Part shown: positions 2,260-56,844 of the stretch, one piece after another
Layout of the letters: each line of letters starts with the position of its first letter
How positions within the stretch are numbered: the stretch's first letter is position 1
Source of the DNA: Microthyrium microscopicum
Lineage: Eukaryota
Direction of reading: 5' to 3'
Assembly: GCA_010405405.1 (NCBI GenBank)
Contig: MU004243.1
Span: forward strand, 243,340 to 307,339
Length of the DNA: 64,000 bases
Notes under the pieces: generated by a model
What the model was told of the DNA's origin: nothing
Databases searched by the model: none
Seen by the model: the letters and a program-made list of their open reading frames with translations, nothing else
Position numbers and translations under genes: made by a program

Positions 2260-3931
2260 TTTCCCAATATTTGTAATGAACGTCCAGAAAGAAACCCAAG
2301 AATGAAAGACGAGAGATTTTCGACCCCGTAAACCTGCTGCAGATGGTGTTTATTGTAGACAGATAATCATTTGAAAGAGTGTTGTCCTGATAGCCTGGAA
2401 CAGGAGGATTGAAAGATGATAAAGAATGATAGAAAAGGCACGCTCTGCAGGTTGTTTTCGTGAACCGTTGAAATGAAGGGGATGTAGATTAAACAGCAGC
2501 CCTTTCCCTTGTTCCTGAGCAGCTCTGAAGTAAACGATCGACAGAGTTAACGTTTCAGTCCTGAGAGCTAGCATGTGCTTCCCCACGGCCAGAGTAAGCA
2601 TATAACGATGAGTTGTTGGAATGTAGAAGAGCTTTGCAAGAATGTTGCTCAAGTGAGGGGAGTAAAGATGCAAAACTGACTTGCCGAATTGTCAAAGAAA
2701 GAAGAAAACGAGGCCCAGAGCAAAGAAAATTGCAAGCCACTCCACATACTGGTCGACTTGTTCAGAAACCACTCAGAAATGGCAGTTGTTCTGTTTTAAA
2801 AGTGGAGAAGTGAAAGGCTGACGCGCGCCCTGGAATGATTGCTACTGGCCTACCAGACCTCTCCATGATCCTTATTGTTGGTTTGGAGATCAACTCATCT
2901 TACAGGCAGGTGGACAACGGTAACAGGTCATGTAGTTGAATCAGGACCTGGGTTTCCTTGCTCTCAGCAGCATTACGTGTGTGTTGTAAGGGACCATGAA
3001 ACCCGCGACAACATCTGTTCCAGACACTGACGAAACTTAGTTTACTGCGTCATTCTTTATGTTGAAAAACTATTGTTACTGGATCTAAAAGGTTTACGGC
3101 TGCAATGTCAGTAGGATAGAAACGGAACGACTCGGTGGTTGGAACGACCAGCTAGTTATGAACCTTGGATATCTTCAAGCCAATGCTAATAGTCTGTACT
3201 CGTGAATGCAGCACCTATTTCGAAGTGTGCATTATTTCGAGATTTCGATGGAAGAGTTCCAAACCTTCCAGAGTCAGCTCGTGAGCTCAATAATTGAATG
3301 TGCTCCAAGCTTGAAAAGACTTGAAGTGGCTTGCATATAAGACCCTGTGCGACTGATACAGCGAATGAGGTGCGGCTAAAGATGAATGAGGCTCTTCTCG
3401 ATGCAGCCAAAGACGGGACGCTGCCACGCTGGCGCCGGTTGAGATTCGATGTGCGTCGCTCGTGGTCATTTGAACCAATCATATGGCCGTGGCAAATCAG
3501 ACAAAAGGGGCACAGTGCAGCTAGGCTAAGTCGCCAACCAGTCTCCAAGCCATGTGGCACTTTTCAGGGGTTGTATGATTGTGGATCCAAGCTGAAGAAG
3601 AGAAAAGGACTAGAAAACCTTGTACTTCAGCCTTATAGAGGTCCTTTTCCATTGCAAGAGTCTTCTAGATCCTTGTTCTTCATCTGACAATAGTACAACA
3701 TCACAGTAGGATTCAACACTTTACAGCCTGATCCAATGCCTCACAATCAAAACACTGAACCACTGCTTAAGCCTTGAGGCCCGCTTGTTACTGCGACATC
3801 GGCCAGTCTCAATTACAGACAGATATCGTGAATGAGAGAATACCTTCCGGCATAGTCTAATCATCTAATGAGACTATTTGACTGTCTTCCCATACATATC
3901 GGTGCCAACAGTATATCTCTCCAGGGTCATC

Positions 3932-6085
3932 ATGGAGATTTCCGCCGATGTCACGTCACCGAATGCGGAAACAATCAAGCGCTTTAACTTACTCGATCGA
4001 AAATGCAGAGCCCAACACGGCAAGGACTTTAGCAGCACGCTCTGCACCGTCTGCGCAGCTTTAGATCTGGATACTCTTCTTGCACCCGCAAAGAAACAAA
4101 GTGCTGGTCGTATGCGAGACGATATCCAACTCGGCTCGCTTTCGCAACTTCAGGACTGCAGCAGCCATTGCACATTCTGCAAATACGTCCTTGAGCAAGT
4201 TCCATCCGTCATTGGACCAGAGGCTATGCCGCCAAAATACGTCGATTACAAAGAGTTTGAATTCGAACCTTATCCACCGCCGGTAGACCATTGGACTTAT
4301 GCGGAGTGCGTCCCGGAACTGAACGAAATCATTGTGATGTTGAGAAGCATGCGCGGTGATACAGAGGAGTGTCAGGACTTGCCGATGATAAAATTGAAAG
4401 ACTACCTTAAGGATCCAGCGGCTACTTGGATTGACATGGTGATCCACAGCGGTGGGCCTGGGTCCAAGACTCCAACAGCAGGAATGGCTATTACATGCAC
4501 AAAATTCGTTCCTTGCTCTAATGGCCTCGTTAAACAGGCACTGAGTGGTAGACTGATTCCTGCAGAAGTAGACTATTCTGAGCTAAAAGGCCATTTGAAT
4601 CTGTGCTTGGACAAACACGAGGAGTGTTTCTTACGTGACGTTGATGCAACTGCTGTGGAAAAGTATCTCTGGTTAATTGACATTGCCAATAGGAGAGTAG
4701 TGCTTGCAAATTCGAGTACAGATTACGCTGCTCTAAGTTATGTTTGGGGTGCAGCACGACGTGATTACACGCACTTCCAAAATATTAGATCTGAGCATTC
4801 CGAGAGTTGGCCAGATATTGAGATGCTTGTGGACGAAAATGAAGTACTGAGCACTGAACTTCCTCAAGATCTACCGGCGACTATATCTGACGCAATTGAG
4901 TTTTGTAGTAAGCTTGGCATTGAGTATCTTTGGGTTGATTCGATCTGCATTGATCAAGAGAGCAAAAAAATGAAAGATTATCTCATTGGGAGAATGGACA
5001 GCATATACATGAGAGCAAAGATTACCATCATCGCAGCTGCGGGTGACGATGCAAATGCCGGGCTTCCTGGTGTGCGTTCTGGAACGCGGAAGGAAAGCAG
5101 AAGAATTACTGACCTCCAAGGAGTGAACTTTACAACTGCGCGGCCCTTTGCAAAGCGATTGATCGCTGACTCAACTTGGTGGAAAAGAGCATGGACATTC
5201 CAAGAAGGCTGGCTATCTCCTCGGTGCTTCATCTTCACAGACCAAGAAGTACTTTATTGCTGCACGCGATCAACACATAGGGAATCTCTGTACTCGTATG
5301 ACCCGTTAGTCAGAAATGGACTTGCCGATCGGCTTTTTATGACTCAAGAGATTGGCTTTCCGACAGGAATCGGGCAGGTCAGCAAGACGCCCAAATTCAG
5401 AACTCTTTTCAACAACGTGATGACATTATATCACAAACGCCAACTCACATTCGAGGGTGACAGGATAAATGCCATCCATGGATGTGTGACTGTGATTTCC
5501 GAACGATTCGGTATTTCCAACTGGTATGGCATGCCAATGCAATGGGGTCGTGGTGCTGGGGCATTGATATGGCGACATATGAAGCCGGCTAAACGGATAC
5601 ATCTTGAGTTCCCAAGTTATTCCTGGGCGAGCTGGAATGCGGAGCCTTTCTATATTGATTATATCACACAAGTTCATGATACGCCGGACATGTTCGAGAT
5701 TGATTTGGACTGGGACATCGTCAAATCTTTGGGCGCTCCGGCTGTACTGTTCAAGGGAGAGGTTGCCAAGCTGTACATCAAGCCTGATCAGTCCAATGAG
5801 TGGCGCTTAGATGAGCAAAAGCATCCAAAACAACCGTCTTGGCTGTCCACGGAATGCTATCTGGATGATGATCTTTCGGTTCAAGAACGTGACAGCATCA
5901 GCAGTGGACCTAGTGAGTTTTTGGGTCTGGCTAAGGGGTACTCTGCGGTTGGCGGCCAAAATGTGGTCATAGCATTGATGATCGAAAGAAAAGAGACACA
6001 TGTGGTCAGGAGGTCAATTATCTGTGTGACAGATTTTGCTTGGATGAGGGCGGTTCGGGAAGACGAGGAGTTGGTGCTGCTCTGA
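3932..6085 (+). CDS. HET (heterokaryon incompatibility) domain protein
   Basis: Intronless ORF (first ATG 3932) with HET motifs LIDI, YAALSYVWG, LPATISDAI, YLWVDSICIDQ, MDSIY and RAWTFQE, plus FPSYSWASW. N-terminal CxxC pairs (CTVC, CTFC). Confidence 0.92.
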   Translation: MEISADVTSPNAETIKRFNLLDRKCRAQHGKDFSSTLCTVCAALDLDTLLAPAKKQSAGRMRDDIQLGSLSQLQDCSSHCTFCKYVLEQVPSVIGPEAMPPKYVDYKEFEFEPYPPPVDHWTYAECVPELNEIIVMLRSMRGDTEECQDLPMIKLKDYLKDPAATWIDMVIHSGGPGSKTPTAGMAITCTKFVPCSNGLVKQALSGRLIPAEVDYSELKGHLNLCLDKHEECFLRDVDATAVEKYLWLIDIANRRVVLANSSTDYAALSYVWGAARRDYTHFQNIRSEHSESWPDIEMLVDENEVLSTELPQDLPATISDAIEFCSKLGIEYLWVDSICIDQESKKMKDYLIGRMDSIYMRAKITIIAAAGDDANAGLPGVRSGTRKESRRITDLQGVNFTTARPFAKRLIADSTWWKRAWTFQEGWLSPRCFIFTDQEVLYCCTRSTHRESLYSYDPLVRNGLADRLFMTQEIGFPTGIGQVSKTPKFRTLFNNVMTLYHKRQLTFEGDRINAIHGCVTVISERFGISNWYGMPMQWGRGAGALIWRHMKPAKRIHLEFPSYSWASWNAEPFYIDYITQVHDTPDMFEIDLDWDIVKSLGAPAVLFKGEVAKLYIKPDQSNEWRLDEQKHPKQPSWLSTECYLDDDLSVQERDSISSGPSEFLGLAKGYSAVGGQNVVIALMIERKETHVVRRSIICVTDFAWMRAVREDEELVLL

Positions 6086-11304: not shown

Positions 11305-12881
<1,577 letters not shown>

Positions 12882-14507: not shown

Positions 14508-15690
14508 TCATCCATCAACCTCAGAATGGGTTCCATTTTCGTCCTTCAGGCTCTTGCGAAACTCGGTCCAAGGCACTATAGTCTCTGCGACTTTGTCAAA
14601 GACAGCGGGCATGAAGACAATTTTTGCACTGCCTTCCTTCTTGCGTATAACTGTCACTTGAAGGTCCCTTGCACGTAGGTTGTTGTCGAACTCGATATCG
14701 TACTCTCCAAACAGTGCTTCCAACCAACCCTCAACGCGTAAGGTAATATAAGCGTACTTCATACATTTACGGCATTGAGATGCAACTACTCGAGCATCCT
14801 TCTCAGGATCTTCGCTAGGAAAACTTTCGGTAAGCATAGTGATCTTTCGTAAGTTGGGAAATTGGGTGAAAACCCTGGAACGCGTTAGTACCGAGATCCT
14901 ACGAAGGAGCTAATAATACTGACCAAGGCAAATCAACCCAATGACTTGGTAGAACAGTCATGCAAGTAACGAGCTTCCTTGTGGATGCGGGAAGGCGTTT
15001 GGTATTAAAGTCGAAGAGACGATAGGTCGTACTCCATCGGCCCAGGTGGTCTTGCTCGCGCCGACTCGTTATCTTTTCCTCAGGAACGAACATGTTGAGA
15101 TGTTGGTATATTTGTTCACGGTCGTGATAGTAGATGGTTCTGCAGGTGCTGAGAATGGCCATTTGAGGCATAGGAGCCGGGCTGTTGCGAAACCGTCTGG
15201 ATGCTTCAATGCGCTGATAGAAGTCCTTGATGTCGCCGCTTGCCAACTCATCGTAAATCGACCATCGAATTTCAGGCGGTAACCGTAGAAAAGGAGTGTT
15301 GCTGTTTTGCACCGTGATGTCTTGTGTTTTGGGGTTGACTTCCGATATACTCATGTCCAGAACTGAGCCATCAACCTGAGAACTATAAGCATGAGATTAC
15401 GAGAAGCGTGCTGCAAGTCTTCAAAGCATATTCTTCGACGATAGTCAAAAACATCTTGCTCAGACTTTAATCAGACGTTAACGCGGCAAGCTTACCAACG
15501 CCAGTGTATCCCTTCTGTTGCATAATGCATCCCGCATATATGCTTGATGCAGCTCCACACGCCTCCAGTGACGATCCAGTTCCGCAAATTGGTGCGGCTG
15601 TAAATGCCAACGCAGCCAGATGCCGCCCACCCATTTGCTCGGCCATTCTCGTTCTTCCCACCATTTGCTGCTCTTTGGCGGTAGAGCCAT
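14508..15690 (-). CDS. Tandem F-box-like (2EXR/DUF7730-type) paralog, copy 1, intact; exons 15690-15496, 15375-14924, 14874-14508
   Basis: MALPPKSSKWW...DTLAL|VDGSVLDMSISEVNPKTQDITVQNSNTPFLRLPPEIRWSIYDEL...ILSTCRTIY...DLPW|VFTQFPNLRKI. Phase-0 and phase-2 GT-AG introns splice in frame. Confidence 0.8.
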
Positions 15691-16140
15691 GTTGGTCGCT
15701 GGTACGACTGTAAATTGACAAAGAGTTTAAATTGACGTGAGCGGGAGTTTTAAACTGGAAGTAGACTGTATGTAGAGGGGCAGTAATAAGGTTGCCCGGA
15801 AACACGATATGTTATATCACGTCAGAGACTTCAGCCTAATGGACGGCATGTGTCAGCCTGATGGAACATATCTAGCCTTCCACATTCTCAAGTCTCATGG
15901 CTGCTAAAAAAATTCTACCGATGCAAACACTTATAGCTGCCAGGTCAGTAGTTACATGGTCTTGATTGCAATTCAAGTGATTTTGGATTATATGTACAAG
16001 TAAAGTTTATATTATATTTCCAGGGTCTTGTCCTCATGAACAGCCATGATGGTCCCCACTTGCCAACCTCGATGACTTCCAACAAAATCTTCCACCTTTG
16101 ACCCTCAGCTGACTCTGAACTTATCCCAGTCTCGATTGTC

Positions 16141-17405
16141 TCAAATTTGGTTCTTGTACTTGACTTGGATAATCTTGCGAAGCTGACTCCAAGTCATCAG
16201 TTCTTTATGAGCTGAATCTAGGATCAAAGGCTTGTAGACAACGGTCTCGCTGCTTTGGTTCTTGGAGCGAATAGTCAAATCAAGGTTGTCCGCACGTATG
16301 TCTTTGTCAAACTCAAGATCGTAATATCCACCAAGCCGTGACACAAGACACAGATGGAATCTGCGGTATTCGTGGTCAGGCGAGCCAGGGGCCCGTAGCA
16401 GGCGGGTATGAAGGTCCGCCATAGCGCCAAAGCATCTTGATGTCGCCAACTGCTCATCATCGGTCGCTTCACTGCTGAACTCGCAGACCACGATGCTTAT
16501 CTCCTGAAGATTTGTGAAGCTTGTACATAACCTAGAACGCAATCAGTGTCAGGGAATCACAACGTATTATGAGGTAGCAGGCGAAATGCACACTATCGGT
16601 GGTTGTAAATCTGGGAAAATTCATACCATTCTAACAGACCCCAATGCATGCTCATAATGGTCATGCGTGTGATCATATTCTTTGTGGAGTAACCGAGATA
16701 TTGGGTGTTGAATCTGAATAGCAAGAAGGCGTAATTGTCGACAGCGAAAATGTTCGTAAATACGAACCTGACGCCAGCGTCGTCAGTGTATTTGCGACCA
16801 TTGTTTATGGAAAGTGTCCTTGCAGGAACGATTAGGTCCAAATCTCTGAACATACGACCGTGAGCCTCGCAATATATTGTTCGACAAGATGCAAGAATGT
16901 GAAGCATAGAAGCTGACTTGTTGAGATTTGCGAGAGTCCTCGCATTCATGATGCGGTCGTAGCGGAGGCTTTCGTCGTCCGCGATCATTTCGATGTAGAT
17001 CATATCGCGAATTTCCTGTGGTAAGCGAAGGAAGCTGGAGCTTTTCAAGTTGCGTAAAGTAGCACTTTCTGTTACGAAATTGAATTTGGTGATCTTATGA
17101 TCGTGGGGAAAGCCGTTTGCCTGAAGGTTGTAAGTAAGAGTCTACATTGATAGAGCGCTGATTATAGCGGCAGTCCTAATGCGCTGACAGAAGCGACCGT
17201 TTTGGCATTGCTCTTGAGTTTAATACAATCAATCTAGGAGGACTTTTACCTTTTGAAGCTTTACCAAGGCCCTGGATTGGTAGAGTCTCTCAGACATAAC
17301 AGCTTGATGAGCTTCGAGGCGTCTTCGTTCTAGGCTATATCCAGCCCACGTGTCTTCCATACCTTCACCTTTCCACCATCTGGTATTTCGGGGCGCCAAA
17401 GCCAT
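16141..17405 (-). CDS. Tandem F-box-like paralog, copy 2, intact; exons 17405-17250, 17120-16627, 16531-16141
   Basis: MALAPRNTRWW...LEAHQAVMSERLY...KLQK|ANGFPH...SSFLRLPQEIRDMIY...ILASCRTIYCEAH...LEW|LCTSFTNLQEI. Same intron positions and phases as copy 1. Confidence 0.8.
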
Positions 17406-18041
17406 TGTGTTGGTGTCTGCGGATGGCAGCGTCCTTGGGTTCTAATTGCGTTGAGTTCCGCAAGCAAAAGCTGGAGGAGAGGTGTCAGAGAAGGAATTGA
17501 GAGAATGAGGCTGGGTATGGGGTAGAGCATGTGACATTTTAAATTGCAGTGGCATAAAAGGTAGTGACTGGAGGTTTTGAAAATCAAATGTAATGGGGAA
17601 TGCGGAAAGTTCAACCTAACGGGTTGTGGTCTGCCTTCCGACTTCCTTCCGCATTCAATACTCACACACCCTTACCACAGAGTTCCTTCTTGATAAGGAA
17701 GAGTAGTGCACGCTCTTTCCTTCCGAGTTACAAGCCCTGTCAGTTATATCAAGAACCTTTGTCAAGAAAATATTGGGGTTTTGACTGAATTGCGCTTATT
17801 TAACACTGGTCCAAACATATCTTTGTTCGGTATCTATGGAAGGTCCATCGAGATTTGAAGAATTCCTCAAGCTTTCAGCGTCAAGTCCAACAAAAGCAAC
17901 AATCGCCGAGCTTAGCATTCACTCCGTGGATAATAACATCCAGTCGCAGAGCTTATACCCCCATTTCCAGGCTCAATACTCCCTGACGAGTCCCTGTCCT
18001 CATAATGCCCGATCATGAATTGGAACAGCTACACTCTGCTA

Positions 18042-19159
18042 TCAATCCACCACTGCATTAGGTGCTGCGCTTTGCAAGATAGTCTTGCGAAGCTGGGTCC
18101 ATGTCAGCAACGGGTGAGGGTTGTGTTCCAGGAAGAGAGGCTGGAAGACAATCGGCAGACTTCCCTCGCGCAGAACCGTCACATCAAGACTCTCCGCCAT
18201 TTCGTTGTCGTCGAACTCAACATCGTAGTCTCCAACTACCGGAGCAATGACATGGTGTTTACGAAGCAGCATCTCGTCAAAACATGTCATTGTTGACCGG
18301 CACCGCCACGCATGAATTTTACCATCTCCATCTTTATCCCGCCGTTCTTCGACAATTATGGTGACAACTTGCAGGTTAGGAAAGTTTTTGAACACCCTGA
18401 AGCTAGTTAGTGGAAAGCGGTTCTCATCTGAGCAAGCTGTCTTACCAAATCTCTTCGAGCGATTCATTTGCCAGAACAGTGATGCGGGTAACGACATCTC
18501 GTATGAGTGGGCGGAGCTGTGTTGTTCGGAGTCTGAAGAGTTTGTAGCTGTAGCTGTCCTCGCGAGTGCTCCAGTATTCTCTTTCATTGTGTAACGACAA
18601 CGACTCTTAGGGTACGAAAATGTCAAGCTGCTTGATGATGTGATCGTGCGCTTCATGGTAGGTGGCTCTACAAGAATCGAGAATAGTGAGTCTGGGTATG
18701 GGAGTTCTTTTGTTCGGATATGTCTGGGCTTCGACAACACGTTAAAGTAAGTTGACCCTATCTCTCGCCAGTCCATCGTAGATCATATATCGAAGTTCTC
18801 GTGGTAGAAGAAGGAAAGAAGATGTTTGATTTTGGTAAGTCACTTCCTTTGTCTTAACGTTTAGTTCGGTCATCTCCAAGCTCTGGCTAGCCAGACGAGC
18901 GAGATCCTATTTGGTAGTGATCAAGTAAAGTGACAGAGTCGACTTGCGTTGGCTGATGGAAGCATTGTGCAGCTCTTCAGAGACGGGAAGACCAATGACT
19001 TACCGACGGAAAATTTGGGGCAGCAGCGCGCTCTCGACGAAATAACCTCCATGCGTAAATGATGTAGCTCTATCGCGAATTCCGGTGAGCCAGGATACGG
19101 TGTACTGGTTCGGTCTCGCGAAAGGTGATACGGACCGCGCGAACCCCCAAAGAAGCCAT
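18042..19159 (-). pseudogene. Tandem F-box-like paralog, copy 3, with in-frame stops; exons 19159-19004, 18906-18446, 18396-18042
   Basis: Exon 2 reads SSFLLLPRELRYMIYDGL...NLL*RVVEA...ILDSCRATYHEAH...IFVP*ES...EIW|VFKNFPNLQVV. TAA at 18742-18744 and 18607-18609, and TAG at 19070-19072 in the putative exon 1. Confidence 0.8.
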
Positions 19160-19550
19160 TGGGTCGAGATCGTGCTTCAGGGAAGCCACGTCGGCCTCGA
19201 CGTTCCATTTCGGTGTAACGTACACGATGTAAAAATCGTGAGGCCCTGAATGTCAAATTTATGTCGAGATCTTGAAGCTATAGGAACACGAAGCGAGGAC
19301 ATGTCTCAATGTTGCAATGTTGCAGTGTGGAAGAAATCAGATATCTTTTACGTACTTCTGCACGAGGTAGACATAAGTTGCCAGCCACAGTAGTCGTTCC
19401 TTCCTAAAAAGGACGAAGCATCTGCTCCTTCCCCGTCAGTCTATTCTCGCGGTATCAAGAATCAATCAGAATACCTCATGTTCTGTTCATCAAATTAATT
19501 CTGCAGCCCGGTTCCAGTCTCTTGATCGATCATCATGACTTGGATGCGTC

Positions 19551-20726
19551 CTAACGTTCTCTCTGCGTTTCACCATGTGCGATATTCCATAGCTGGGTCC
19601 AAGTTACCAACTCGTCTGAATCATGAAAGATGATCACAGGTTTGACAGTGATCGATGGGCCTCCTTGACCCTTAAGCTGTACTATCAAAGTGAGATCCTT
19701 CAGTAAAAGGAGTTGCTCAAGAGTTACATCGTCCATTGATTCGTGGTTCTCGCCATCAAATTTGACCTCATAGTCTGTCTCTGAAGGCGGCGCAGCGAAA
19801 GAGCTTCGTTGGTTGAATGGATCATGTTCTCCGCCTTTAGATTGTAAGTAATATATGCCAGCGTTGCGGCGGACTAGAACATCCAGATAGGGAACGCTCA
19901 TGTTACACATCCAGCGAAGTGCTTCGGCTGGTTCGTCGTATTTGGGTACAGTGACATTGTAATCGCTGCTCACATATGAGACTTCGGTGATTGTTCGCAA
20001 ACTGGGGAAGCTTTCGCGTAGCCTCGAACTGATCAGTATCTAATGTGGTCGCCCGAGTCGAAAAAACTCACCTCGAGAATCTGATATATGACTTTGGAAG
20101 TATGGTCAAGCGAGTAATAAGCTGTCCAGTAGAAAGATGAAAATGCTTGGTACTCAAGTCGAAGAGAAGAGACGCAGGGTTTACCTTCGACGTTGAGGAT
20201 GCACTATTATTCCCAGTGAATTCAGCAAAAAGAAGGATGTGCTCGCTAGGAGTAATCATGTTGAGGTTTTTGAAAACATCGTTGTGGGCTTCGTTGTAGA
20301 TGGTTCTACATATGTTGAGAAGAGCTATTTGAGGTATGCGCGATGGCATGATATCAAGTATTTGAGCTGCTCTAATACGCTGTACGAAGCCCGCATCGTC
20401 TGTTGCAAGTTCCAAACAAATAGCCAGTCTTATTTCTTGCGGTAGCTTCAAGAATAAAGATTTTTCCAAGTTCTGAAGAGTGATGGGCTTGGTCTTAACG
20501 TTGTAAACAGTGATGTCTGTTCTTTGGGACGACCCGTTGACCTGAATAGTGTAAGTAGGTAGGTATGTACTTATGTAGTCTTATATAGCTACATCGTGTT
20601 GGAAAACGATGGGCAGCTTACTTTTGCAGCTTTATCTTCGTGTTCTCTGCTATAATATTTCTCACTGATACGGAGCCGATGCGCCTCAAGAAGCTTTGGG
20701 TCCGCACCCTTCAAATCTATGTTCAT
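19551..20726 (-). CDS. Tandem F-box-like paralog, copy 4, apparently intact; exons 20726-20622, 20541-20072, 20028(or 20022)-19551
   Basis: MNIDLKG...LLEAHRLRISEKYY...KAAK|VNGSSQRTDITVYNVKTKPITLQNLEKSLFLKLPQEIRLAI...LLNICRTIYNEAH...|LRESFPSLRTI. Conserved intron positions. Confidence 0.78.
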
Positions 20727-21705
20727 CGGATATCCTTTCAATGGATTGGCCGAACCGTGGCTACTTGATTTCTTGATGTTGAGATTGAAAGGTCAACAAC
20801 GGGCAGTTTCAAAAGTGTAACGAAGTTTGATAGACAGCTTATTTTCAAGGTTCGATTTGGTTTATGCGAAATTCCTGCGTAATGGGGGCCAATATGCAGC
20901 CTGCCATGCTGGCAATGGGCATGCACCTCATATAAGCGGTGCCCAATACTATGATCACTTCAAACTCAAACGCTATTCTCCGCCATTGATCATGGTTGGC
21001 TTGTGCTACATCCCGATCACTTCAAACTATCATGTATAGGCTGCCATAATTCCCGCGTAACCTATCAATAAACGACCACCCAAGCCATCCCATCTGTACC
21101 TCTCCAGATTCATTCGCCGTGTTGGATTCCAATTATGCTATGAAATTACGACCTACTAAACAGCTCTCCGGAGTCGGGATTGCAGACAGCCAGCTTGGAG
21201 ACAATTGCTGGCCCTGCCTCTCGTCCCACAGTCAAGTCGAGATTCTCGCACAAAGGTTGTCCTCAGACATCCAGACATCATGGTCTCCAAGCAAACCAGG
21301 AAGATATGGCATCAAGGAATGTTGAGAACAATTATAACATGCTCGCTCATGTTCATTCCACCTCTATGACATGGCATATGCCAAGTTGAAATCTCAGAAT
21401 CCCCTCACTACTGTGATTGGGGTTTAAAAAGGCTAGATGAAAGGAGCAGAATTGAACGGATTCAACATGTTTGTATTATCCTTTAAAGAGACCTCTCTCC
21501 TACATTCCTACTAACGATGAGCAGCTCGAAGACTTGTTAAGTCCATTGGAAACTGCTTCATGCATGAGACCGCGAAAGTCGAGACAACATACAGTTCTCC
21601 CGGAGCGCAGCATCCTAATGGGCTTTGATCCTTAAATTGCTTTGAACAACAGCTCAATTTCGCCACCGTGTCAGCCATGAGGTAACGCAATACGATCGAA
21701 TCATC

Positions 21706-22820
21706 TCAGTTGAGGTCGTCTTCGTCTGTTGGAAAGCGATGACCAGAGGGTTTGAAGATGTCGACCTTCTTGCAAAGCTGACTCAAGGTGGAAAACTCAT
21801 GAGTTCTAACATTGAAGACGAGGGGCGTGATGGTGATTGGCACACTTCCTTTTCCTTTGCGCCGAATAATAATGTCAAAGCTCGTGCGTTCTTCATTAAG
21901 AGTATTGGAGACATCGTATTCTCCAAGCACTTCTTTCACACTTCCATATAATAGTATGACTTCGTTGCAATCCATGCCCTCCCAGCTGTTGTCACAGTCG
22001 TGTGCCTCATCCAGCTTTGGAATCACGTTGGCGGAGCCGTAGGTAAGTATAGTGATATCTCGCAACCTGGGGAAGGTTTCAAAAAGCCTGTAAGCGGTCA
22101 GTAAACGGAAGGATATGGTAGTAGGCATAATATGTGACGCTACATTCTTACCATCGCCATTTAATGAATCGAGTTTTCATGATGGTCATGGAAGTACACC
22201 CGTTTGCAAAATGTCCTTTCCACCTGACCCCCTCCCCATTCATACTTTTCAATACTTTTTATGGGGTTTTCATAAGGAATTGGCCAACCAGGTGGGCCAA
22301 ATATACTAGTCTCTTTTCGGTCCCAGACTTTACTAAGAAAACTTAGGTTATAATGCCTTTGATTGGTTATATTGTCCCAAAAAACATGTATTAGGGGAGA
22401 GTGGTAGGTGGAAAGGACATTTTGCAAACAGGTGTAATGAGCTTTGCGGTGGACAAGGGCAAGCGAATGGTGTTGGATTCGAAAAGTCGCAACGATACAT
22501 TGAGTTCCCCACCAGGAGCATCGCACATAGGATGATTACGTTAAGGCGCTGGTAGATCCGATCATGACCTTCACAGTAGGTTGTTCTACAAATGCTAAGG
22601 ATGGCAGTCTCAGGCATCGGAAGTCGATCCTCTCGAGGCAGGCTGCTCCGACGTTGCCAGAGACTGGCCTTAACACGTTGCAAGTAGTTTTCATGGTCTG
22701 CAACAACTTCATCGTAGATCATGAGTCGAATCTCCGATGGTAGACGAAGGAAGGGGGATTTGCCCAAGTTCTCCAATGTGATGCTTGAGACTCTTTCTTG
22801 CTGCGACCTTGTTTGATGCC
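21706..22820 (-). pseudogene. Tandem F-box-like paralog, copy 5, disrupted by a frameshift and a MITE insertion; 5' end unresolved
   Basis: SITLENLGKSPFLRLPSEIRLMIYDEV...ILSICRTTYCEGHDRIYQRLNVII, then a 1-nt frameshift near 22530 into ...LRLFESNTIRLPLSTAKLI[MITE]TSMTIMK...W|LFETFPRLRDI (intron 22151-22088). Confidence 0.8.
22197..22434. mobile_element. 238-bp MITE with 29-bp TIRs and TA target-site duplication (Tc1/mariner-pogo type, non-autonomous)
   Basis: Left end CACCCGTTTGCAAAATGTCCTTTCCACCT (22197-22225); right end reverse complement CACCTGTTTGCAAAATGTCCTTTCCACCT (22406-22434), one mismatch. TA at 22195-22196 and 22435-22436. AT-rich interior. Confidence 0.92.
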
Positions 22821-23390
22821 ATCGTGAAATTATGTGGCGTTGAGAATTGGTAGATGGTTTTGAGTGGAGTATATGGGGTGTGAGGTAAAACAAGCAAGGT
22901 CTAAAGACCTGATGATACAGAATTTTATGGGGTGCTTTTTGGACGACAGCAACAACTCAGAATCTGGTTAGGAAAAAGGTTCGGCGCTGGTAATGGTGGG
23001 GTTTTAGTCTTCTTTGAGTGCTGAGTGCCTTCCTAGAACGGAAGGTGCTCCTGCGTCAAAATCACTGGAGAGCGAGAGCTCTGAAACCTCGCGTGGAAGC
23101 TCTTAGCAGTAGACGGAACGAAAAGTTATGAGCGAATTGGATCATCTTGATGCTGTGTAATGGATACTACAATGTAGCTTAGATAACTAGCATTTATCCT
23201 TTCCAGTCTACCTCACAACTAACAGATACTGCCTCAATCATAAACGTTAGTGTGTGAGCGCAGTTCCAGATACAATTTTCTGAACCCAAAATGCTTGCTC
23301 ATTCGCGGTCATCGCCGCCATCAATATCATTGCCAGAGCCAATCCCTACAAAACCTTGCCTTAGTTTCGCGCCGTCTCCGCCATTGCTAG

Positions 23391-24693
23391 TTACTGAAGC
23401 GGCTTCTTCATCTCAAGGATCTGAAGAAGCTGAGCAAAGAACATAAGCTCCCCGGAGGCTTGATTCAAGACGGCGGGTTTGATTGTGAGGATCGGGCTTC
23501 CTTCCTCCGATTGCCAAACTGTCAGGTCTAGGCTTTTGGCGATTCGGACTGCTGCACGAATATCGCGTCTGGATAGTGCACGACTCTTGCCCGCGCTGGA
23601 CACTGGGTACCGGTCCACACCTTCGAAATCAAGTTCATAGTCCCCAGCCCATGAATGAGGCGGCCAGTCTAGCATGCAGCCGTAGACGCGTTTCATAGCA
23701 TCTCTACAGTGGAATGCTTTGCCGTCACAATCGTACAAATAGCTTGAAGGACCCGAATGGTCGATCAGTAGGATGATCTCCTTTAACTCAGGGAAATAGC
23801 TCAATGCCCTGCGAATGATTAGTCGGCCTGAATGATGATAAATTGTCTCGCATCATATCTGCCACGATACAGGTATAAGACAATCTTCAGTAGCACGCTT
23901 CGCTGTGATAGTTCATCCTGGACCAAACAGATATGGAAGATTTGAAGTAAGAAAGGGGATTGCGGCGACAGATCTTACCAAAAAATTGCACGCGGATCAA
24001 AACCTGGAACAGTTATGCGTGTAATCAGCTTTCTCGAGGATGTGCTCAGTCTCTTGGTGTTGAAGATGAATAGTTGACGCGCAGGGTTCTTCAGAAGTTC
24101 GTGGTGATGACTATCCCACAAATAGAGGTCAGGCACAGCCAAATTTAGTCGCTGGAAGGTTCGATCATGGCTTTCCCAGTGAATTGCTCTACAGGTTCCG
24201 ACCATAGCCAGTTGAGCCATCGGAGGCTGAACCTTGCGGAGATCTCGACATTCCTCAAAGCTGGATGCCAATTCATCGTAAATCAAGTATCTGAGTTCGC
24301 GCGGCAATCGAAGAAGCAAACACTGTTCTTGGTTTTGACGAGTTATGCTTTCTGTGCGCGTGTTGATTTCGGGGATTTCGAGATCTCGATGAGCCGAATC
24401 GGGCTGAATTGTGTAAGTAAAAATCTTTAACAGCATTGCAATTAAAAGTGAGGCGGAGAAGCGCAATTAATCCAATGTCTACCGCTGATGAATTAGCGAT
24501 CAAGGCTTACCTCTGTAGCCATCATTGACTCGACTTGGTCGGCAAGATGACTAGCGGCTGATTCTGCTTTGCGGACTTCTAATAAGTTTGCTTCGAACTG
24601 GGCTGCTTTGCGAACTTCTGACCATGCTTCGAGCTCGTCTAGAAGTAGGTCTTTGAGACTCTTCTCCTCAGATTTGGCTACTTGGTCCGACAT
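23391..24693 (-). CDS. Tandem F-box-like paralog, copy 6, intact; exons 24693-24511, 24403-23979, 23808-23391
   Basis: MSDQVAKSEE...MMATE|PDSAHRDLEIPEINTRTESITRQNQEQCLLLRLPRELRYLIYDEL...VGTCRAIHWESH...AIFW|ALSYFPELKEI. Conserved intron positions and phases. Confidence 0.8.
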
Positions 24694-24727
24694 TATGCGC
24701 CAACACTTGCTAGTAAAAGTCGCAAGA

Positions 24728-24817
24728 AAAGAGGATGGATGGGTGTGCGAGGATGCAAAATGTGCGAGGTTTAAGAGGCGGGTGGAAGTGGAAAGGAAAG
24801 AGGATGGATGGGTGTGC
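24728..24817. repeat. Perfect 21-bp direct repeat (AAAGAGGATGGATGGGTGTGC x2, 69-bp period)
   Basis: Copies at 24728-24748 and 24797-24817, just upstream of the copy 6 ATG. Confidence 0.85.
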
Positions 24818-24965
24818 CGCGAACTTATTAAAGAACGAGGTTGAGCAGGTTGTGACAACCAGAAGTTAGAGGTTCATGTTTTCAGCCTGATGGTGAAGCT
24901 CGAGGCGCCTGGTCCAAGGGGTGGTGCGTGCCCAATTTAGTGCTTCACGTGCGTTCGTGGTTACC

Positions 24966-25117: not shown

Positions 25118-27246
25118 ATGTCGACCTTCCGGGGCTTCCTGTCCGGTATGGGTCTCCTCGCTGGCTCCGTTTCCGTTCTTCTACTAACAAAACCCAGAGT
25201 TTCCTCGAATACGCATCGACTTCTTCAGAATAGTGGATGGGCAACCTCCACCATTGGCATGTTTTCTGAGCCATGTTCATTCGGATCATCTGGCAGGACT
25301 GGAATCGCTCAAGGCACCATTTGTGTACTGCTCACCTGCAACAAAAGAGGTTAGTTGGACCTTGATCTCCAAATGGTCTGCTTCATTTGATCTGTATCCG
25401 AAATCTATTCCCTCAATACAATTTATCCGAAATCAATAGCTTACGTGTCCAGGTTCTGTTACGGCTTGAGAAATACCCATCTCGTATGAACTTTGCGAAA
25501 GGAATTCTGGAAACTAGACTACAGACATACAAGAACCTCAAGAAACTATTGAAGCCCGTCCCGTTCGAGACACCCACAGAGATTGAATTGCAGCCTGGCA
25601 ATACCATCCGAGTAACGCTGTTCGATGCAAATCATTGCATTGGGGCAGCAATGTTTCTGATCGAAGGCGATGGAAAAGCTATCATATATACAGGAGACAT
25701 TCGATCCGAATCATGGTGGGTAAACTCGCTAGTTCAAAACCCAGTCTTGCTTCCTTATGCCTCTGGCCTACATTATCTTGATAACATATATCTTGATACT
25801 ACCTTCGCCACGAAGAAAGCCGTCTATCAAAAGTTTCCATCCAAGGCGGAGGGCCTCAAAGAGCTCCTAGAGAAAGTATCACAGTACCCAAAAGACACAA
25901 TGTTCTATTTTCAATCTTGGACGTTTGGTTATGAAAATGTTTGGATCGCGTTATCTTCGTTTCTGGATACACAAGTTCATCTTGATTCCTATCGTTGGGG
26001 TATATATCGTTCTCTGGCCAAAGTAAAGGAAGGTCCTCCATGCCAGGAGGCGCCTCAACTCTCTGGCTTTTACTTGGGCAATCATTTCAAGCAGGGATGT
26101 CTCACTCAAGAATCGGCTGGAAGACTTCACAGCTGTGAAAAAGGCTCTGGCTGTTCAGTGATAGACGGAAATTCAGAAGTGGTCACAATACTCCCAGTCA
26201 TAACTCGCCGTCAGGATGGTCTTACAGTCTACGAAGTTGGAGCTGGAGGTGGCCAAGGAGACTTGAATCAGATCCAAGAACTAGAACTACCAGACGTTGC
26301 ATCGTTGGACCAGCTGGTCGAACTTTGTGGCGATGTGATTAGCGACCAGAAAGTCCTTCTGAAAGTCGTCAAAATGCTACTTACCAAAGGCAAAGGACAG
26401 AAATCTCGAATACGACTAGAATCTCATGTCAATGATATCGGGGCCGACAGCTTCGAGCAACAAGTCAAAATAGAGAGGCTAGTGGATGAACTAGTGCGAA
26501 TGGTGGATACTCCTGCCAGCGAAGAAGCTGATGATTCTTATATTCCAAACTCAACGGCCGCCCAGTTGCCCAGGACAATCACGTTTCCATATTCTCGCCA
26601 TAGTTCGTACTCAGAATTATGCGAACTTGTCTCTGCATTCCAGCCAAAGCAGGTGTACCCATGCACAGTTGACGAAATGACCTGGACGCCTGCAGTCGGA
26701 ATGGCACATTTGTTTGGCCACTGTTGCTCTGGCACTCGTTTTGAACATGACGATGAGATGATGGTAAAGTATAGTGATCGGGTGGAACAGGAGACGCAAG
26801 ATCAGGAGCAACAAACGCAGACGGACTCAAATATACGATCTGATAGTGCTACCGAAAGCCAAGTGACGCAAATCCTCATTGCCGAGCAGATCAGTTCCCC
26901 GGCAAACGCAGAAAACAATGTGAAGCATACCGCTGAGCAGAACCACTTCGCTGGTACCCAGTACGAAACTGTCAATGAATCTTTTCGAAGTGCTCGATCC
27001 AATGCTGCAAGCCTGGATCGCCAGTCATCAGTAGGGGAAGTCCCGTCACCGAAGAAGTCTCAGAAACGGAAACGTGAGGGTGGCCAGAGCAAGGCCGATC
27101 AATCTCGACCTGGAAAGGAAAGTACGATTATGGAATGGGCTTATCAAGCAGCTAGAAGTGGTGATTGGGACAGCTTTTCGGCAGGACTCGTGTCTGTTCG
27201 AGGATTAAACGAGTCCTTTGAATTACCGCTCATGGAGGATGATTGA
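25118..27246 (+). CDS. Artemis/SNM1-family metallo-beta-lactamase beta-CASP DNA repair nuclease; exons 25118-25145, 25198-25349, 25453-27246
   Basis: FLSHVHSDHLAGL (HxHxDH), DANHCIGAAMFL, YTGDIR, IYLDTT and FPYSRHSSYSEL motifs. Two canonical introns splice in frame. Confidence 0.92.
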
Positions 27247-33513: not shown

Positions 33514-34237
33514 AGTTGTTGATGGCTGGGGGAGTGTTATTTGTGAGAAGAGGGAAGAAATGACCAAGATGTCTCGTTTGGGAAGTTGGTGATGGGACAT
33601 TGAATTGACAAAATCGCCAATGCACGACTTCACGTGATATTAAATTGCGCTTACTACAATACCATCCAGCCTCTAACATTTCAAAACCTCACAAAAGTAC
33701 GGAGTAGTTTGTTTCGACAAATGTGCTGGTTCTTAGACGCATTGCTTGACTGTTTACTGTAAATCACTTTAACTTCCAAAGCAGGCTGTTGAAGTTTGAC
33801 GTCAGGCAGAAGGATTCGTCCACGTTCAAGCTTTTCGCTCAACCTGTCCATGACCGGAGAACTACCTTTGTACGATCTGCTCGTGTATCGTTTATTTGAC
33901 TATGATCTCATCTAGAGCTCAAGTGTTTCGATGTTCGGTGTACCACCATGGATGGTCGCTTGTAACAGAATGAGGAGGTACCAAACACGACCTAAAAAGC
34001 TCTATATGGCGTCAATCGTTCAGCCTGATGGACTGCAGCTTACAAATTTCACAGACGAATCCATTCATGCCCCTCATCTGCAAGCCTGCTACAGGAGAGG
34101 TCGAGGCTATGATTCATTCTTGGATAAGCACATCGCCTCAATCCTCCTAACTTGCATTCAAACATGAGTACTTAGTACTTACCGATCAAACTTCTCAATT
34201 AGACCCGCCGATAAACCCCAAATTGACCCCATTCATT

Positions 34238-37060
34238 ATGGGAAAAGACAGGAATGGCAAGAGCCGACGTGAAAAGGGCTTGTCAAAGCGACAAGATAAG
34301 GAACCTGAACTGAAGACTGAGACGAAAGTGATTAGTGATGAGCCCATCTGGGCGTACCAGAATCTCCAGAAAGATCAATTTTACGCTGCTCTCTACTTCT
34401 TCACCTACTCGAAATCTACACAGCCGACAGACTATCTTCAGAATGCTGCTGTTGCCATGGCAGGAGATGCGAGAAATCAGTTACTTGATAAACTGGCATT
34501 ATTGTTTGCCAGATACCGAAACTCTGAGAAGATGGATCGATATGGATGCCCGCCAGAATTCGAAACCAAAACAAGACCATCGACCACTGCAGAGAATGTC
34601 ACTGCTATAGCGCTTGAGATGCCCCCTGAGCCAGACCGCCATATAAAACAAAGGTCATGCAATTGGACATTTTGGATTGCAAAGAACCGTGGGAGTCAGG
34701 ATTTCGATGCCATGAATGATGATATTTTCGCTAAGAAACTTGAACGATGGTACAACGACTTTGAAGGGCCGTTGATTTTGAACGTCGGAGATGAAATCTG
34801 GTCAGACGTGCAGCAGTTTTGGATGCGACGTAGTTGCTATTACTTTGAAATTCTTCAAAAACTTCGCAGTAAATGGTTTCCGGTAGCGAAGGATCCGCTG
34901 TACACCACTGAACCTCCTCCTAAGCTTTTGGAATACTTCTCGGCCATGAATCCAGCGAATGTCAGGACTGACTGGGAGCATGTCTGGAGCCTCATTGAGA
35001 AATTGAAGTTCAACAGCAATGATTGGAAGCAATCAATCAACGACTATGTCAATTGTATCTGCTTCGAAGACACCCAAACCTGGCGTGAGTCTCAGTATGC
35101 AAGATATGGCGCCAGGTCGGCACAGGCTGGGAACGGGGAAGAAGATTCAAAGACGAATCTTTCAACAAATCAACTCAGAGAGAAGAGCCAAATTGCGAAG
35201 GAGTTCCGCGAAGCTATCATTTGTTTACAATTGTTGAGAACACCAAAATCTGTGTTGGAGAAGTTTCTCAATTTTCGACACAGACAACAGAATGCAACAA
35301 GCATCAGCATCCGGTTTCTTCCGGTTACAAATGTGGACAAGCTGAAAGCGGAGAGAATTCATTCCACGATCAAGGCATGGTATGGTGAGAAAGTCAAAAA
35401 TGTCGACGGACAGAAGCTCTTCGCATTGGATGGAGCCAGATCCAATTTAACCTTCAAGCAGCATTCCAAGCTTGTTCTAAGGAAACTTCCACGCGAAGCG
35501 CAAGAGATTCATACGTCTTTTCACTGTGAGCTTCAACTGTTGGGAAAGTTCATGACAAATAAAAATGTACACATGTACTTTGGTTGCAGTAAACTGTCAT
35601 GCTATCTCTGTTGGGCGGTGCTTACAGGATCCAGATTTCGGACTCGAGGATCACACGGAGAAATATCTCCAGATTGCGTCTTTCCTTTCCAGTTCTCAGG
35701 TGAAGATGAGGACAAAAGCTATAACCAGCTTGCAGAAGCATTGAAACGCGTCGAAACCCACTTCCTTGAGCGCATTCGCGATAAGGCCAGCAGAGATGAT
35801 TACCTAGTGACAGATCATCTCGCAATCACCCAAACCCAAGCCAGCGATGCCGCATTTCTTCCTTATGGGCCACATCAAGTCTACAAAAACACATACATCT
35901 TCCATTTCAAAGAATCAGATATCCCAGATACGAGGCACCGACAGCTCATGAACACAATACACGCAAGGAATAAGAGGCCTGCATTAGGTCTTGATCCGCT
36001 ACGTACTCTGACACCAGTGCGTCTCCGCACCTTGTGCAAACCAGGCCAAATGGGTTATCGATTGCTTCGAGCTGTCGAAATACCCCCAAATCTCATCTCA
36101 GATATGGATGCGTTACTTCTCAGCACCGACATCGCTTTCACGGGTGTCACTGAGAAGCATACATATCGGATACCAAAGGTAGAAAACCCACAAAACAGCT
36201 TGTGGATCACGAATTTCAAGTTAGACCAATTGTCTCAATCCCTGCGAGAGCATCATGTAAAGAGAAACAGCAAACAGGGACTCTGGCAGCACGATTTTCT
36301 TGTCGACCAAAGTGACGAACATTACAAAAGTCTCTCATATAAGCCGGCACTAACCTTCTGGCGAGTCCAAGGCTACCCAACCTCTTTGGTCAACTGGAAA
36401 GACCGTACCAGCATGCAGAGCCCTTTTACTGCCAGGGGAAAGTTCTTCGTCTATGAGGCGCCTAGTAGTGAATCCGTCCTGCACAATGAGCTTGCGACAG
36501 AATACATACAGAAGGGCTGGTGGCACTACATTGCTGTGAGGGCTCTACCTGAGGACCCTGTGGTGGTTCAGTTCGCAGAGAATTTCAGCTCTGCAAAGAC
36601 GGTATTGAAGTGGCTACCCCAAGAAAACAAGTATTGGCGGAATTGGGAGAATCATGGAAGGGCATCTGGTATCCCCACCTCGACTAATAATCGAGACCTA
36701 GAGCAGACAGAATCTCTGATCATTTCAAGTGATGGCGAGGAATTTGAGTTTGAGGCTACGAGTTCCGTTGGCGATCTACTCTACGAAGGCGATTCGGAGG
36801 GCGCAAGGAGTGAATACGAGCGTGAACGCTTAGAGATGATGAAACCCGGGTATAAACAGCAGAAGTTGACCACATTTTGGGCAAAAGATATCTGGAGCGA
36901 TGAAGAGCAAGACGAAGAAGAAGGAGAAGAGGAGAGAGAAGAAATGGATGAGACAGAAATGATCAATGACGAACTGGATATGCCTGGAATAGACGATAGA
37001 GAGGGTTCCATGGCTAGTGATGATGAAGAATGCTCATGTTTCCTGATTTCTGATAAGTAA
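34238..37060 (+). CDS. Large protein with OTT_1508-like (nucleic acid/nucleotide) deaminase motif and acidic C-terminal tail
   Basis: Intronless ~940-aa ORF with HCELQLL...YFGCSKLSCYLC (HxE + CxxC zinc motif). N-terminal LLDKLALLFAR...VTAIAL...IAKN block typical of fungal members. D/E-rich tail. Confidence 0.8.
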   Translation: MGKDRNGKSRREKGLSKRQDKEPELKTETKVISDEPIWAYQNLQKDQFYAALYFFTYSKSTQPTDYLQNAAVAMAGDARNQLLDKLALLFARYRNSEKMDRYGCPPEFETKTRPSTTAENVTAIALEMPPEPDRHIKQRSCNWTFWIAKNRGSQDFDAMNDDIFAKKLERWYNDFEGPLILNVGDEIWSDVQQFWMRRSCYYFEILQKLRSKWFPVAKDPLYTTEPPPKLLEYFSAMNPANVRTDWEHVWSLIEKLKFNSNDWKQSINDYVNCICFEDTQTWRESQYARYGARSAQAGNGEEDSKTNLSTNQLREKSQIAKEFREAIICLQLLRTPKSVLEKFLNFRHRQQNATSISIRFLPVTNVDKLKAERIHSTIKAWYGEKVKNVDGQKLFALDGARSNLTFKQHSKLVLRKLPREAQEIHTSFHCELQLLGKFMTNKNVHMYFGCSKLSCYLCWAVLTGSRFRTRGSHGEISPDCVFPFQFSGEDEDKSYNQLAEALKRVETHFLERIRDKASRDDYLVTDHLAITQTQASDAAFLPYGPHQVYKNTYIFHFKESDIPDTRHRQLMNTIHARNKRPALGLDPLRTLTPVRLRTLCKPGQMGYRLLRAVEIPPNLISDMDALLLSTDIAFTGVTEKHTYRIPKVENPQNSLWITNFKLDQLSQSLREHHVKRNSKQGLWQHDFLVDQSDEHYKSLSYKPALTFWRVQGYPTSLVNWKDRTSMQSPFTARGKFFVYEAPSSESVLHNELATEYIQKGWWHYIAVRALPEDPVVVQFAENFSSAKTVLKWLPQENKYWRNWENHGRASGIPTSTNNRDLEQTESLIISSDGEEFEFEATSSVGDLLYEGDSEGARSEYERERLEMMKPGYKQQKLTTFWAKDIWSDEEQDEEEGEEEREEMDETEMINDELDMPGIDDREGSMASDDEECSCFLISDK

Positions 37061-55956: not shown

Positions 55957-56844
55957 ATGTCTAACGCATACACTCTTCGAGGATACAACATTGACTCTGT
56001 CATCCCAGAGACTCGTGACATTACAGTATCCAACCACCGCAACGCCGGACTTCTCCAATTGCCTCCAGACGTCCGTCTATGCATCTACGACGCTCTTGTC
56101 GAAAGGTTCAGCACCCGCCACAACTCCAAGACCATAAAGTCACAGCCCCTGAAGGTGCTAGCCTCCACCTGTCGAAGCCTATATGTTGAAACTCGTCCCT
56201 ACACTCTACGACGGACAATTGTTGACGTCAAGGTTCCCATGAGACAACTTGACCATTCCATCAGAGCTGCGCGCACAGTCACAAGGACTATAAGCCGCCT
56301 CAAAGCCCTGCCAGGCGGTGAAGACGTCCACGCAGACATAACCCACCTGACCGTCCGTCTCATCCACGAGAAGAACGTCCCCGGCGCCATAAACCGCGCA
56401 TTCGGCGAATTATGCGCCTGCCCAAACCGAGAGATTGGAGAACCCTGCTACAAGCCCGTAGAATCAGTTGCAGCAGTGCTAGTCCTCGCTCTAGTAACGC
56501 TCCTCCCGAGGCTGCGGCAACTAATCGTGATGATACCAGCAAAGCTTGGCGACACCGTTGATGGGCTATGCGCTTATAACCATCATCGCGTGGTGGACAG
56601 GTTTGCGGAGAGGATTGAGTATGCTCTTGGGCCTACGGTTGACGGGGGACGGAATGTTCGCGTGCACGTAACATATCCAGTGAAACGGCCTGAGGGCAAG
56701 TTTCCGCTGCATATGTTCACGGAATCGGTATGGGTCGGAAACAGTGAGAGGAATGCGAGAGACGTGCTCACTATCACTGTTATGACAAACTCGAGGTATA
56801 ATGTTGGTCCATATCATTGTCACCGTCTGATAGACTTGCCATAG
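55957..56844 (+). CDS. Dispersed, intronless F-box-like protein related to the 14.5-24.7 kb array family
   Basis: IDSVIPETRDITVSN...LLQLPPDVRLCIYDAL...LASTCRSLYVET...ITHLTV...LPRLRQL matches the array consensus blocks. Confidence 0.72.
   Translation: MSNAYTLRGYNIDSVIPETRDITVSNHRNAGLLQLPPDVRLCIYDALVERFSTRHNSKTIKSQPLKVLASTCRSLYVETRPYTLRRTIVDVKVPMRQLDHSIRAARTVTRTISRLKALPGGEDVHADITHLTVRLIHEKNVPGAINRAFGELCACPNREIGEPCYKPVESVAAVLVLALVTLLPRLRQLIVMIPAKLGDTVDGLCAYNHHRVVDRFAERIEYALGPTVDGGRNVRVHVTYPVKRPEGKFPLHMFTESVWVGNSERNARDVLTITVMTNSRYNVGPYHCHRLIDLP

Follow-up and report, generated by a model that had tools for sequence, protein, structure and literature searches.

DUF7730 and 2EXR proteins are widespread in filamentous ascomycetes, and the tandem F-box genes of plants and nematodes are another described system with which the array studied here can be compared. 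F-box genes have reportedly undergone lineage-specific expansions in those groups, with positive selection in the substrate-binding parts of the proteins. Here we analysed a 64,000-nucleotide stretch of contig MU004243.1 of the fungus Microthyrium microscopicum (the window), in which positions 14508-24693 of the minus strand hold six paralogous three-exon gene units, c1 to c6. A preliminary description, made from the letters alone, had taken this array for rapidly diverging F-box-like genes turning over by birth and death. We find that the array is a lineage-restricted subfamily of the known, uncharacterised DUF7730 superfamily, in which four intact copies are transcribed, correctly spliced genes for soluble proteins of ~340 residues and two are transcribed pseudogenes. 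Like the plant and nematode expansions, as these are generally portrayed, the array combines tandem adaptor-like genes, pseudogenes and divergent C-terminal parts; unlike them, it has only six copies, its silent sites are saturated and a signal of positive selection is unmeasurable.

The gene units were found from stop-to-stop open reading frames (ORFs) and three-frame translations, and spliced models were built from canonical GT..AG sites, with two junctions (the c2 donor at 17250 and the c4 acceptor at 20022) fixed by transcript joints. The array extends from the end of the c1 stop codon at 14508 to the first base of the c6 ATG at 24693, and its gene starts lie 1567 to ~2240 bp apart, close to the ~1.5-2.2 kb spacing first described for six same-strand genes. 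A late phase-2 intron is common to all six copies, splitting a Trp codon (TG|G) in c1, c2, c3, c5 and c6 and an Arg codon (AG|G) in c4, and exon 1 ends at a phase-0 intron in c1, c2, c3, c4 and c6. These intron positions, and the division into four open copies (c1, c2, c4 and c6) and two broken ones (c3 and c5), bear out what had been read from the letters.

The predicted junctions could be compared with contigs of run X5, which comes from another study than the genome reads and is listed only as 'RNA?'. Its contigs carry joints and match the window at an identity of 99% or more, without a differing letter. Over the examined stretch we counted 13 joints of the GT..AG or CT..AC type, ten of which are predicted array introns exactly. 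Joints were seen for intron 2 of every copy and for intron 1 of the four intact ones, making ten of the 11 predicted introns; the sole intron without a joint is c3 intron 1, which is retained in X5. Because GT..AG joints appear in X5 alone, and DNA run X3 has none of them, we take X5 to be transcript-derived, and it is probably an RNA run. All six units are covered by X5 contigs, whose depth is unable to rank the copies. Both pseudogenes are also transcribed, and expression alone is therefore no proof of function. Runs X6 and X7 gave 8 and 4 contigs, respectively, all short, identical and of low depth, and no variation was seen among them.

The array genes had already been deposited as hypothetical proteins, and our translations of c2, c4 and c6 are identical to the last letter to KAF2664097.1 (P0146), KAF2664098.1 (P0001) and KAF2664100.1 (P0002). 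The remaining copies correct the public annotation. KAF2664096.1 (P0003, 134 residues) is a shortened c1 that has the same exon 2/3 junction and is without exon 1 and most of exon 2, and the transcript joints back the full gene of three exons and 337 residues. For c5, GenBank holds only a 157-residue model (KAF2664099.1, P0005), which is a remnant, and c3 is an unannotated pseudogene.

That the six units are homologous is evident from their alignment. The spliced models align end to end, beyond the short LPxEIR motif, with pairwise identities of 27-35% over 237-314 aligned positions, and every block listed in the preliminary description is present in the same order (T..IT..N, FLRLPxEIRxxIY, CRxIYxEAH, LFxFNT...ITR.T, FPxLRxI, a Cys, GxYDxEFD and WxQLxK), with very divergent sequence between the blocks. 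When each copy was searched against the window with tblastn, the other five were found at E 1e-8 to 1e-37, and the remaining ~54 kb contained one extra place (55987-56397; E 4.7e-8 with c1 as the query). A DNA-level repeat search of the window showed that the copies share short coding motifs only, and it found no intergenic similarity between them. In a tree of the six copies, 38 outside relatives and a seventh gene of the window, the copies form one clade, with a value of 97 in the Shimodaira-Hasegawa-like approximate likelihood ratio test (SH-aLRT) and none of 500 label shuffles as low; within this clade only c4 and c5 are joined, weakly (87). The cluster arose by local duplication of one ancestral gene.

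Sequence comparison identifies the array core as a divergent DUF7730 domain. Aligned with hhalign to 59 outside proteins (alignment A5), the family (alignment A2) scored 99.6% with E 9.6e-25 over residues 68-221 of c6. The aligned region spans 139 columns, beginning upstream of LRLP and reaching the FPxLRxI strand, and the homology therefore does not rest on the short LPxEIR motif alone. A hidden Markov model (HMM) made from outside proteins only matched exon 2 of all six copies: the five exon 2 ORFs that are unbroken gave E 5e-18 to 7e-24, the two fragments of c3 6.8e-8 and 8.9e-6. We also searched a family profile of 302 positions against 1.84 billion representative proteins at E<=0.001, which gave 145 matches; six were the window's own proteins or near-identical fragments, leaving 139 from outside. 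In an alignment of 94 of these 139, selected, with 11 family rows (A3, used for the Pfam tally only, since it misplaces exon 3 fragments), 91 of the 105 rows match DUF7730, 41 match 2EXR and seven match F-box-like_2. Neighbours in the ESM Atlas (score 0.96) are Ascomycota clusters named F-box/DUF7730/2EXR. A search for homologous proteins with c1 exon 2 alone returned 0 matches. Like other DUF7730 proteins, the array proteins carry ITxxN, (S)P(L/F)LRLPxE(I/L)RxxIY, LLxxCRxIYxEA, a Q..I..L strand and FPxL(R/K)x(I/V), in the same order; unlike the outside matches, they add an exon-1 helix and a tail of ~120 residues, and they form their own clade. The likeness to 2EXR, a family named for two conserved ExR motifs (PMC9621593), is partial. 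All five spliced models, and c5 as well, have the first ExR inside LPxE(I/L)R, but this is the only ExR that the array shares, with no second at a common position.

The tail is what sets the array apart. Its last ~120 residues, with the Cys, GxYDxEFD and WxQLxK, have no match outside the array among the representative proteins searched. The best stretches of all 139 outside matches fall within profile positions 6-215, and only proteins of the window itself and two fragments nearly identical to them cover positions 220-300. Exon 3 gave no match in Pfam, and when the exon 3 alignment was used in a word-based search, P0003 and P0005, both from the window itself, were the only proteins found. The C-terminal domain that had been reported as unrecognised thus has no counterpart in any outside match. 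The array had also been called lineage-specific, and the subfamily is indeed seen only in this genome, although sparse sampling of the order weakens the term: to our knowledge very few genomes of Microthyriales have been sequenced, and 'found nowhere else' therefore partly reflects sampling.

Table. Positions of the array copies and of other features in the window, counted from its first letter.
Feature	Position	Strand	Parts and remarks
c1, intact, 337 residues	14508..15690	minus	exons 15690-15496, 15375-14924, 14874-14508; both introns seen as X5 joints
c2, intact, 346 residues	16141..17405	minus	exons 17405-17250, 17120-16627, 16531-16141; both introns seen as joints
c3, pseudogene	18042..19159	minus	exons 19159-19004, 18906-18446, 18396-18042; three in-frame stops
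c4, intact, 348 residues	19551..20726	minus	exons 20726-20622, 20541-20072, 20022-19551; joints skip 80 and 49 nt
c5, pseudogene	21706..22963	minus	remnants 22830-22531 (frame 0), ~22519-22437, 22194-22152; exon 3 22087-21706
c6, intact, 341 residues	23391..24693	minus	exons 24693-24511, 24403-23979, 23808-23391; joints skip 107 and 170 nt
Terminal inverted repeat element, 242 bp	22195..22436		43-nt terminal inverted repeats, TA on both flanks; in c5 exon 2
Possible exon 3 relic of a further copy	21149..21262	minus	wide c4-c5 gap; weak HMM match
Seventh DUF7730-type gene (P0060), 295 residues	55957..56841	plus	distant, intron-less; not part of the array
TIP49/RVB gene	11305-12458		flanks the array
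DRMBL (Artemis/SNM1-like) gene	25366-27246		flanks the array
HET (heterokaryon incompatibility) domain gene	3872-6085	plus	same 64-kb window
OTT_1508-like deaminase gene	34151-37060	plus	same 64-kb window

The array consists of old, retained duplicates, with no evidence of unusually fast divergence. NG86 estimates for the six pairs of intact copies gave a nonsynonymous divergence (dN) of 0.65-0.92. Synonymous divergence (dS) was incomputable in four of the pairs and stood at 4.1 for c1-c4 (dN 0.70) and 1.6 for c1-c6 (dN 0.70), so that dN/dS between paralogues is uninformative about rate. With third-codon-position identity of 28-40% among intact copies, silent sites are saturated, which makes the duplications old and leaves no recent birth. 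In the tree, whose rows are mostly other DUF7730 proteins, the six copies have end branches of 0.7-1.5, below the median of 2.14 over all rows. Taken with the absence of any pair above 35% identity, these values do not uphold the view of the array as rapidly diverging. Birth-and-death evolution holds in part: two deaths are documented and the births are ancient, but none is recent. Repeat-induced point mutation (RIP) was considered as a driver of the divergence and rejected. No signature was found, as TpA/ApT (0.69) and (CpA+TpG)/(ApC+GpT) (1.28) of the array are the same as in its flanks; the lowest RIP index value, 1.08, is in c3.

Age did not erode the intact copies. Four frames of 337-348 codons are open despite saturated dS, and since the chance of this is ~8e-8 for a single 340-codon frame, purifying selection is required. 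Fragments from other assemblies, the only comparison across isolates, point in the same direction, with small numbers and differing regions: a c2-like fragment (P0004) is identical to c2 at 125 of 131 positions and has all motifs intact, and a c3-like fragment (P0006) is identical at 73 of 82, with three changes inside GDYDVEFD, which would fit constraint on the live c2 and drift in the dead c3.

The two pseudogenes were disabled in different ways. In c3, one in-frame stop lies in exon 1 and two in exon 2, and one of the stops (TAA) occupies the position of a Gln in c1, c4 and c5. Three defects mark c5: a terminal inverted repeat (TIR) element inserted in exon 2, a frameshift, and an exon 1 of which nothing could be recognised. 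The X5 contig is contiguous over 22151-22963, and intron 2 is seen as a joint. The inverted repeats of the element are 88% complementary. When the element is cut out in silico, '...STAKLITSMTIMKTRFIKWRW' is recovered in the frame of the ancestral TG|G donor; the frameshift, between 'QRLNVII' and 'LRLFESNT', is needed even after this removal. It resembles a small inverted-repeat transposon that targets TA. DNA run X3 has a further copy, ~92% identical (15 differences over 188 nt), on a different contig, making the element a candidate representative of a family of small, TA-targeting miniature inverted-repeat transposable elements (MITEs) in M. microscopicum. The gap between c4 and c5, which is wide, holds a stretch ('LCENLDLTVGREAGPAIVSKLAVCNPDSGELF') that the family HMM places at profile positions 249-282 (E 0.035 among 1,025 ORFs), a weak match that may mark the relic of a further array copy.

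What the proteins do is approached best through the c2 structure model (m3cea585480f3; 26-row alignment), which has a predicted local distance difference test score (pLDDT) of 74, rising to 80-90 around the LP motif, and a predicted TM score (pTM) of 0.68. The model contains a long exon-1 helix, then five helices spanning TxxITxxN to CRxIYxEAH, and for the rest an alpha/beta body with a sheet of four strands and a terminal helix at its end. The c6 model (m574b678ee6c2; 9-row alignment; pLDDT 65) is unusable in its F-box-like part, where pLDDT is below 50. Each protein comprises three parts, namely a long helix encoded by exon 1 that differs between copies, a DUF7730-homologous core (TxxITxxN helix, LRLPxE(I/L)RxxIY, CRxIYxEAH, LFxFNT..ITRxT and FPxLRxI), and the private tail. 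One possible mechanism, which we advance with some doubt, is that the LPxE(I/L)R..CRxIY helices work as an F-box does, attaching the protein to Skp1 of an SCF (Skp1-Cullin-F-box) ubiquitin ligase, with the alpha/beta body and tail choosing the substrate. The copies would then be a handful of substrate receptors, each with its own specificity. In UniRef, c4 carries the name 'F-box domain-containing protein', and on c1 the F-box-like PRANC family reaches a sub-threshold 14.8 of 25.8 bits (E 0.036).

As the overall explanation of the locus we favour, tentatively and on a nearly balanced judgement, an old, retained cluster of DUF7730-type genes with a putative role as SCF receptors. Several results weigh against formal DUF7730 membership or against the F-box reading. 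None of the Pfam F-box families PF00646, PF12937 and PF13013 matched the 11 exon ORFs and two full proteins at E<=1, so that the motif LP.EIR..IY, which had been ascribed to the F-box/2EXR/DUF7730 type, stands as DUF7730/2EXR but not as a Pfam F-box. Formal membership of DUF7730 itself (PF24864) is not attained, as no copy reaches the gathering score of 27 bits: the best, c2 exon 2, has 25.2, the remaining copies 13.9-19.8, and the full proteins c4 and c6 11.8 and 13.1; for 2EXR (PF20150) the best copy has 19.4 of the required 24.8 bits. A sequence-profile search of PDB found no F-box chain at E<=10, and Foldseek found nothing in PDB at E<=0.001 for the c2 and c6 models, with F-box complexes only at E 0.26-0.79. 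With two copies out of six dead, constraint is not uniform across the set. In the literature searched we found neither a published function for DUF7730 nor the term itself; 2EXR occurred there only in the paper creating the family (PMC9621593), no paper testing the function of either family was found, and the matches listed for Microthyrium and for F-box/Pezizomycotina contained nothing on the array family. The proteins also differ from canonical F-box receptors such as Fbw7, Skp2, FBXL3 and Legionella AnkB. The array proteins match no F-box Pfam family, their model has an extra helix between the LP and CR helices, and the body is not a WD40, a Kelch or a clear leucine-rich repeat (LRR) domain. 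It is a possibility of some substance, though a doubtful one, that the proteins are of the DUF7730 type without being SCF receptors, the helices serving as a structural cap or binding a partner other than Skp1, and the family having another role, such as that of a scaffold, a regulator or an enzyme-like alpha/beta domain. The superposition of the helices on an F-box bound to Skp1 (1.9 A, 46 of 48 residues) and the seven related proteins that match F-box-like_2 speak against this, as does the lack of a catalytic motif such as a P-loop: P-loop GTPase-like folds are the best structural neighbours of the body, and the Walker A motif GxxxxGK[ST] is absent from the array proteins.

Two further readings concern the whole array rather than its mechanism. 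Tandem arrangement, the death of two of six copies (one by a mobile element), a tail private to the array and the strong divergence between motifs might all be expected of a conflict-driven, rapidly diversifying repertoire of adaptors, turning over by birth and death and directed at non-self, viruses or drive elements, and the same window holds a HET-domain gene and an OTT_1508 deaminase gene. We consider this unlikely. Saturated dS and the low identity of every pair leave no recent birth, dN/dS is below 1 where it can be computed, end branches are short for the tree, and between isolates the intact c2 differs less than the pseudogene c3. Ordinary genes separate the HET and OTT_1508 genes from the array, housekeeping genes among them on the HET side, and we gave this proximity no weight. 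A narrower form, in which the predicted proteins are SCF receptors whose beta-rich tail is a new substrate-recognition module and whose copies diversified against non-self or selfish-element targets, is more improbable still. At the other extreme, the array could be decaying, functionless DNA that is merely transcribed, its four open frames being leftovers; spliced contigs do cover both pseudogenes like the intact copies, and the array genes have no known function. Yet open frames of such length at saturated silent sites, canonical splice sites that have been kept and conserved motif blocks make this a most improbable account, and the old, retained DUF7730-type cluster remains the explanation that we favour.

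The surroundings of the array are as first described, with an RVB-type gene on one side and an Artemis-type gene on the other. The seventh gene of the window was matched by the HMM of outside proteins at E 4.2e-25 over profile positions 11-209, and Pfam gave nothing for it at E<=1. It groups in the tree with P0041, a protein of another fungus, and not with the array; it and this close relative have an N-terminal 'YTLRGY.I......T..IT' block in common. Shortly upstream of the c6 ATG, at 24717-24817, lies a 32-nt direct repeat, 91% identical and with 69 bp between its copies, and the source DNA run has several short variant contigs at 24785-24909, a stretch that may be repetitive or polymorphic.

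The X5 contigs contained joints other than those predicted. One marks an additional intron on the minus strand (19422-19474), downstream of the c4 stop and upstream of the c3 ATG. A single contig of 2,758 nt spans c4 and c3 (18445-20620), with c3 intron 1 retained and intron 2 spliced, and c3 may be transcribed as a read-through of c4. A plus-strand GT..AG joint at 21469-21524 lies on the same contig as the minus-strand c5 intron, which points to an unannotated spliced transcript, antisense or neighbouring, in the c4-c5 gap; no convincing ORF was found at this joint.

Altogether, the array as it stands is an ordinary tandem family of old date and gives no evidence of an arms race. Were the copies nevertheless SCF receptors for non-self or selfish-element targets, this would be the first functional handle on the very large, uncharacterised DUF7730 family of filamentous fungi. 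With four expressed paralogues and two dead copies at one locus, the array is a compact and tractable case, which offers a clear test of binding between LPxEIR and Skp1 and a private tail that lends itself to swaps among the copies.

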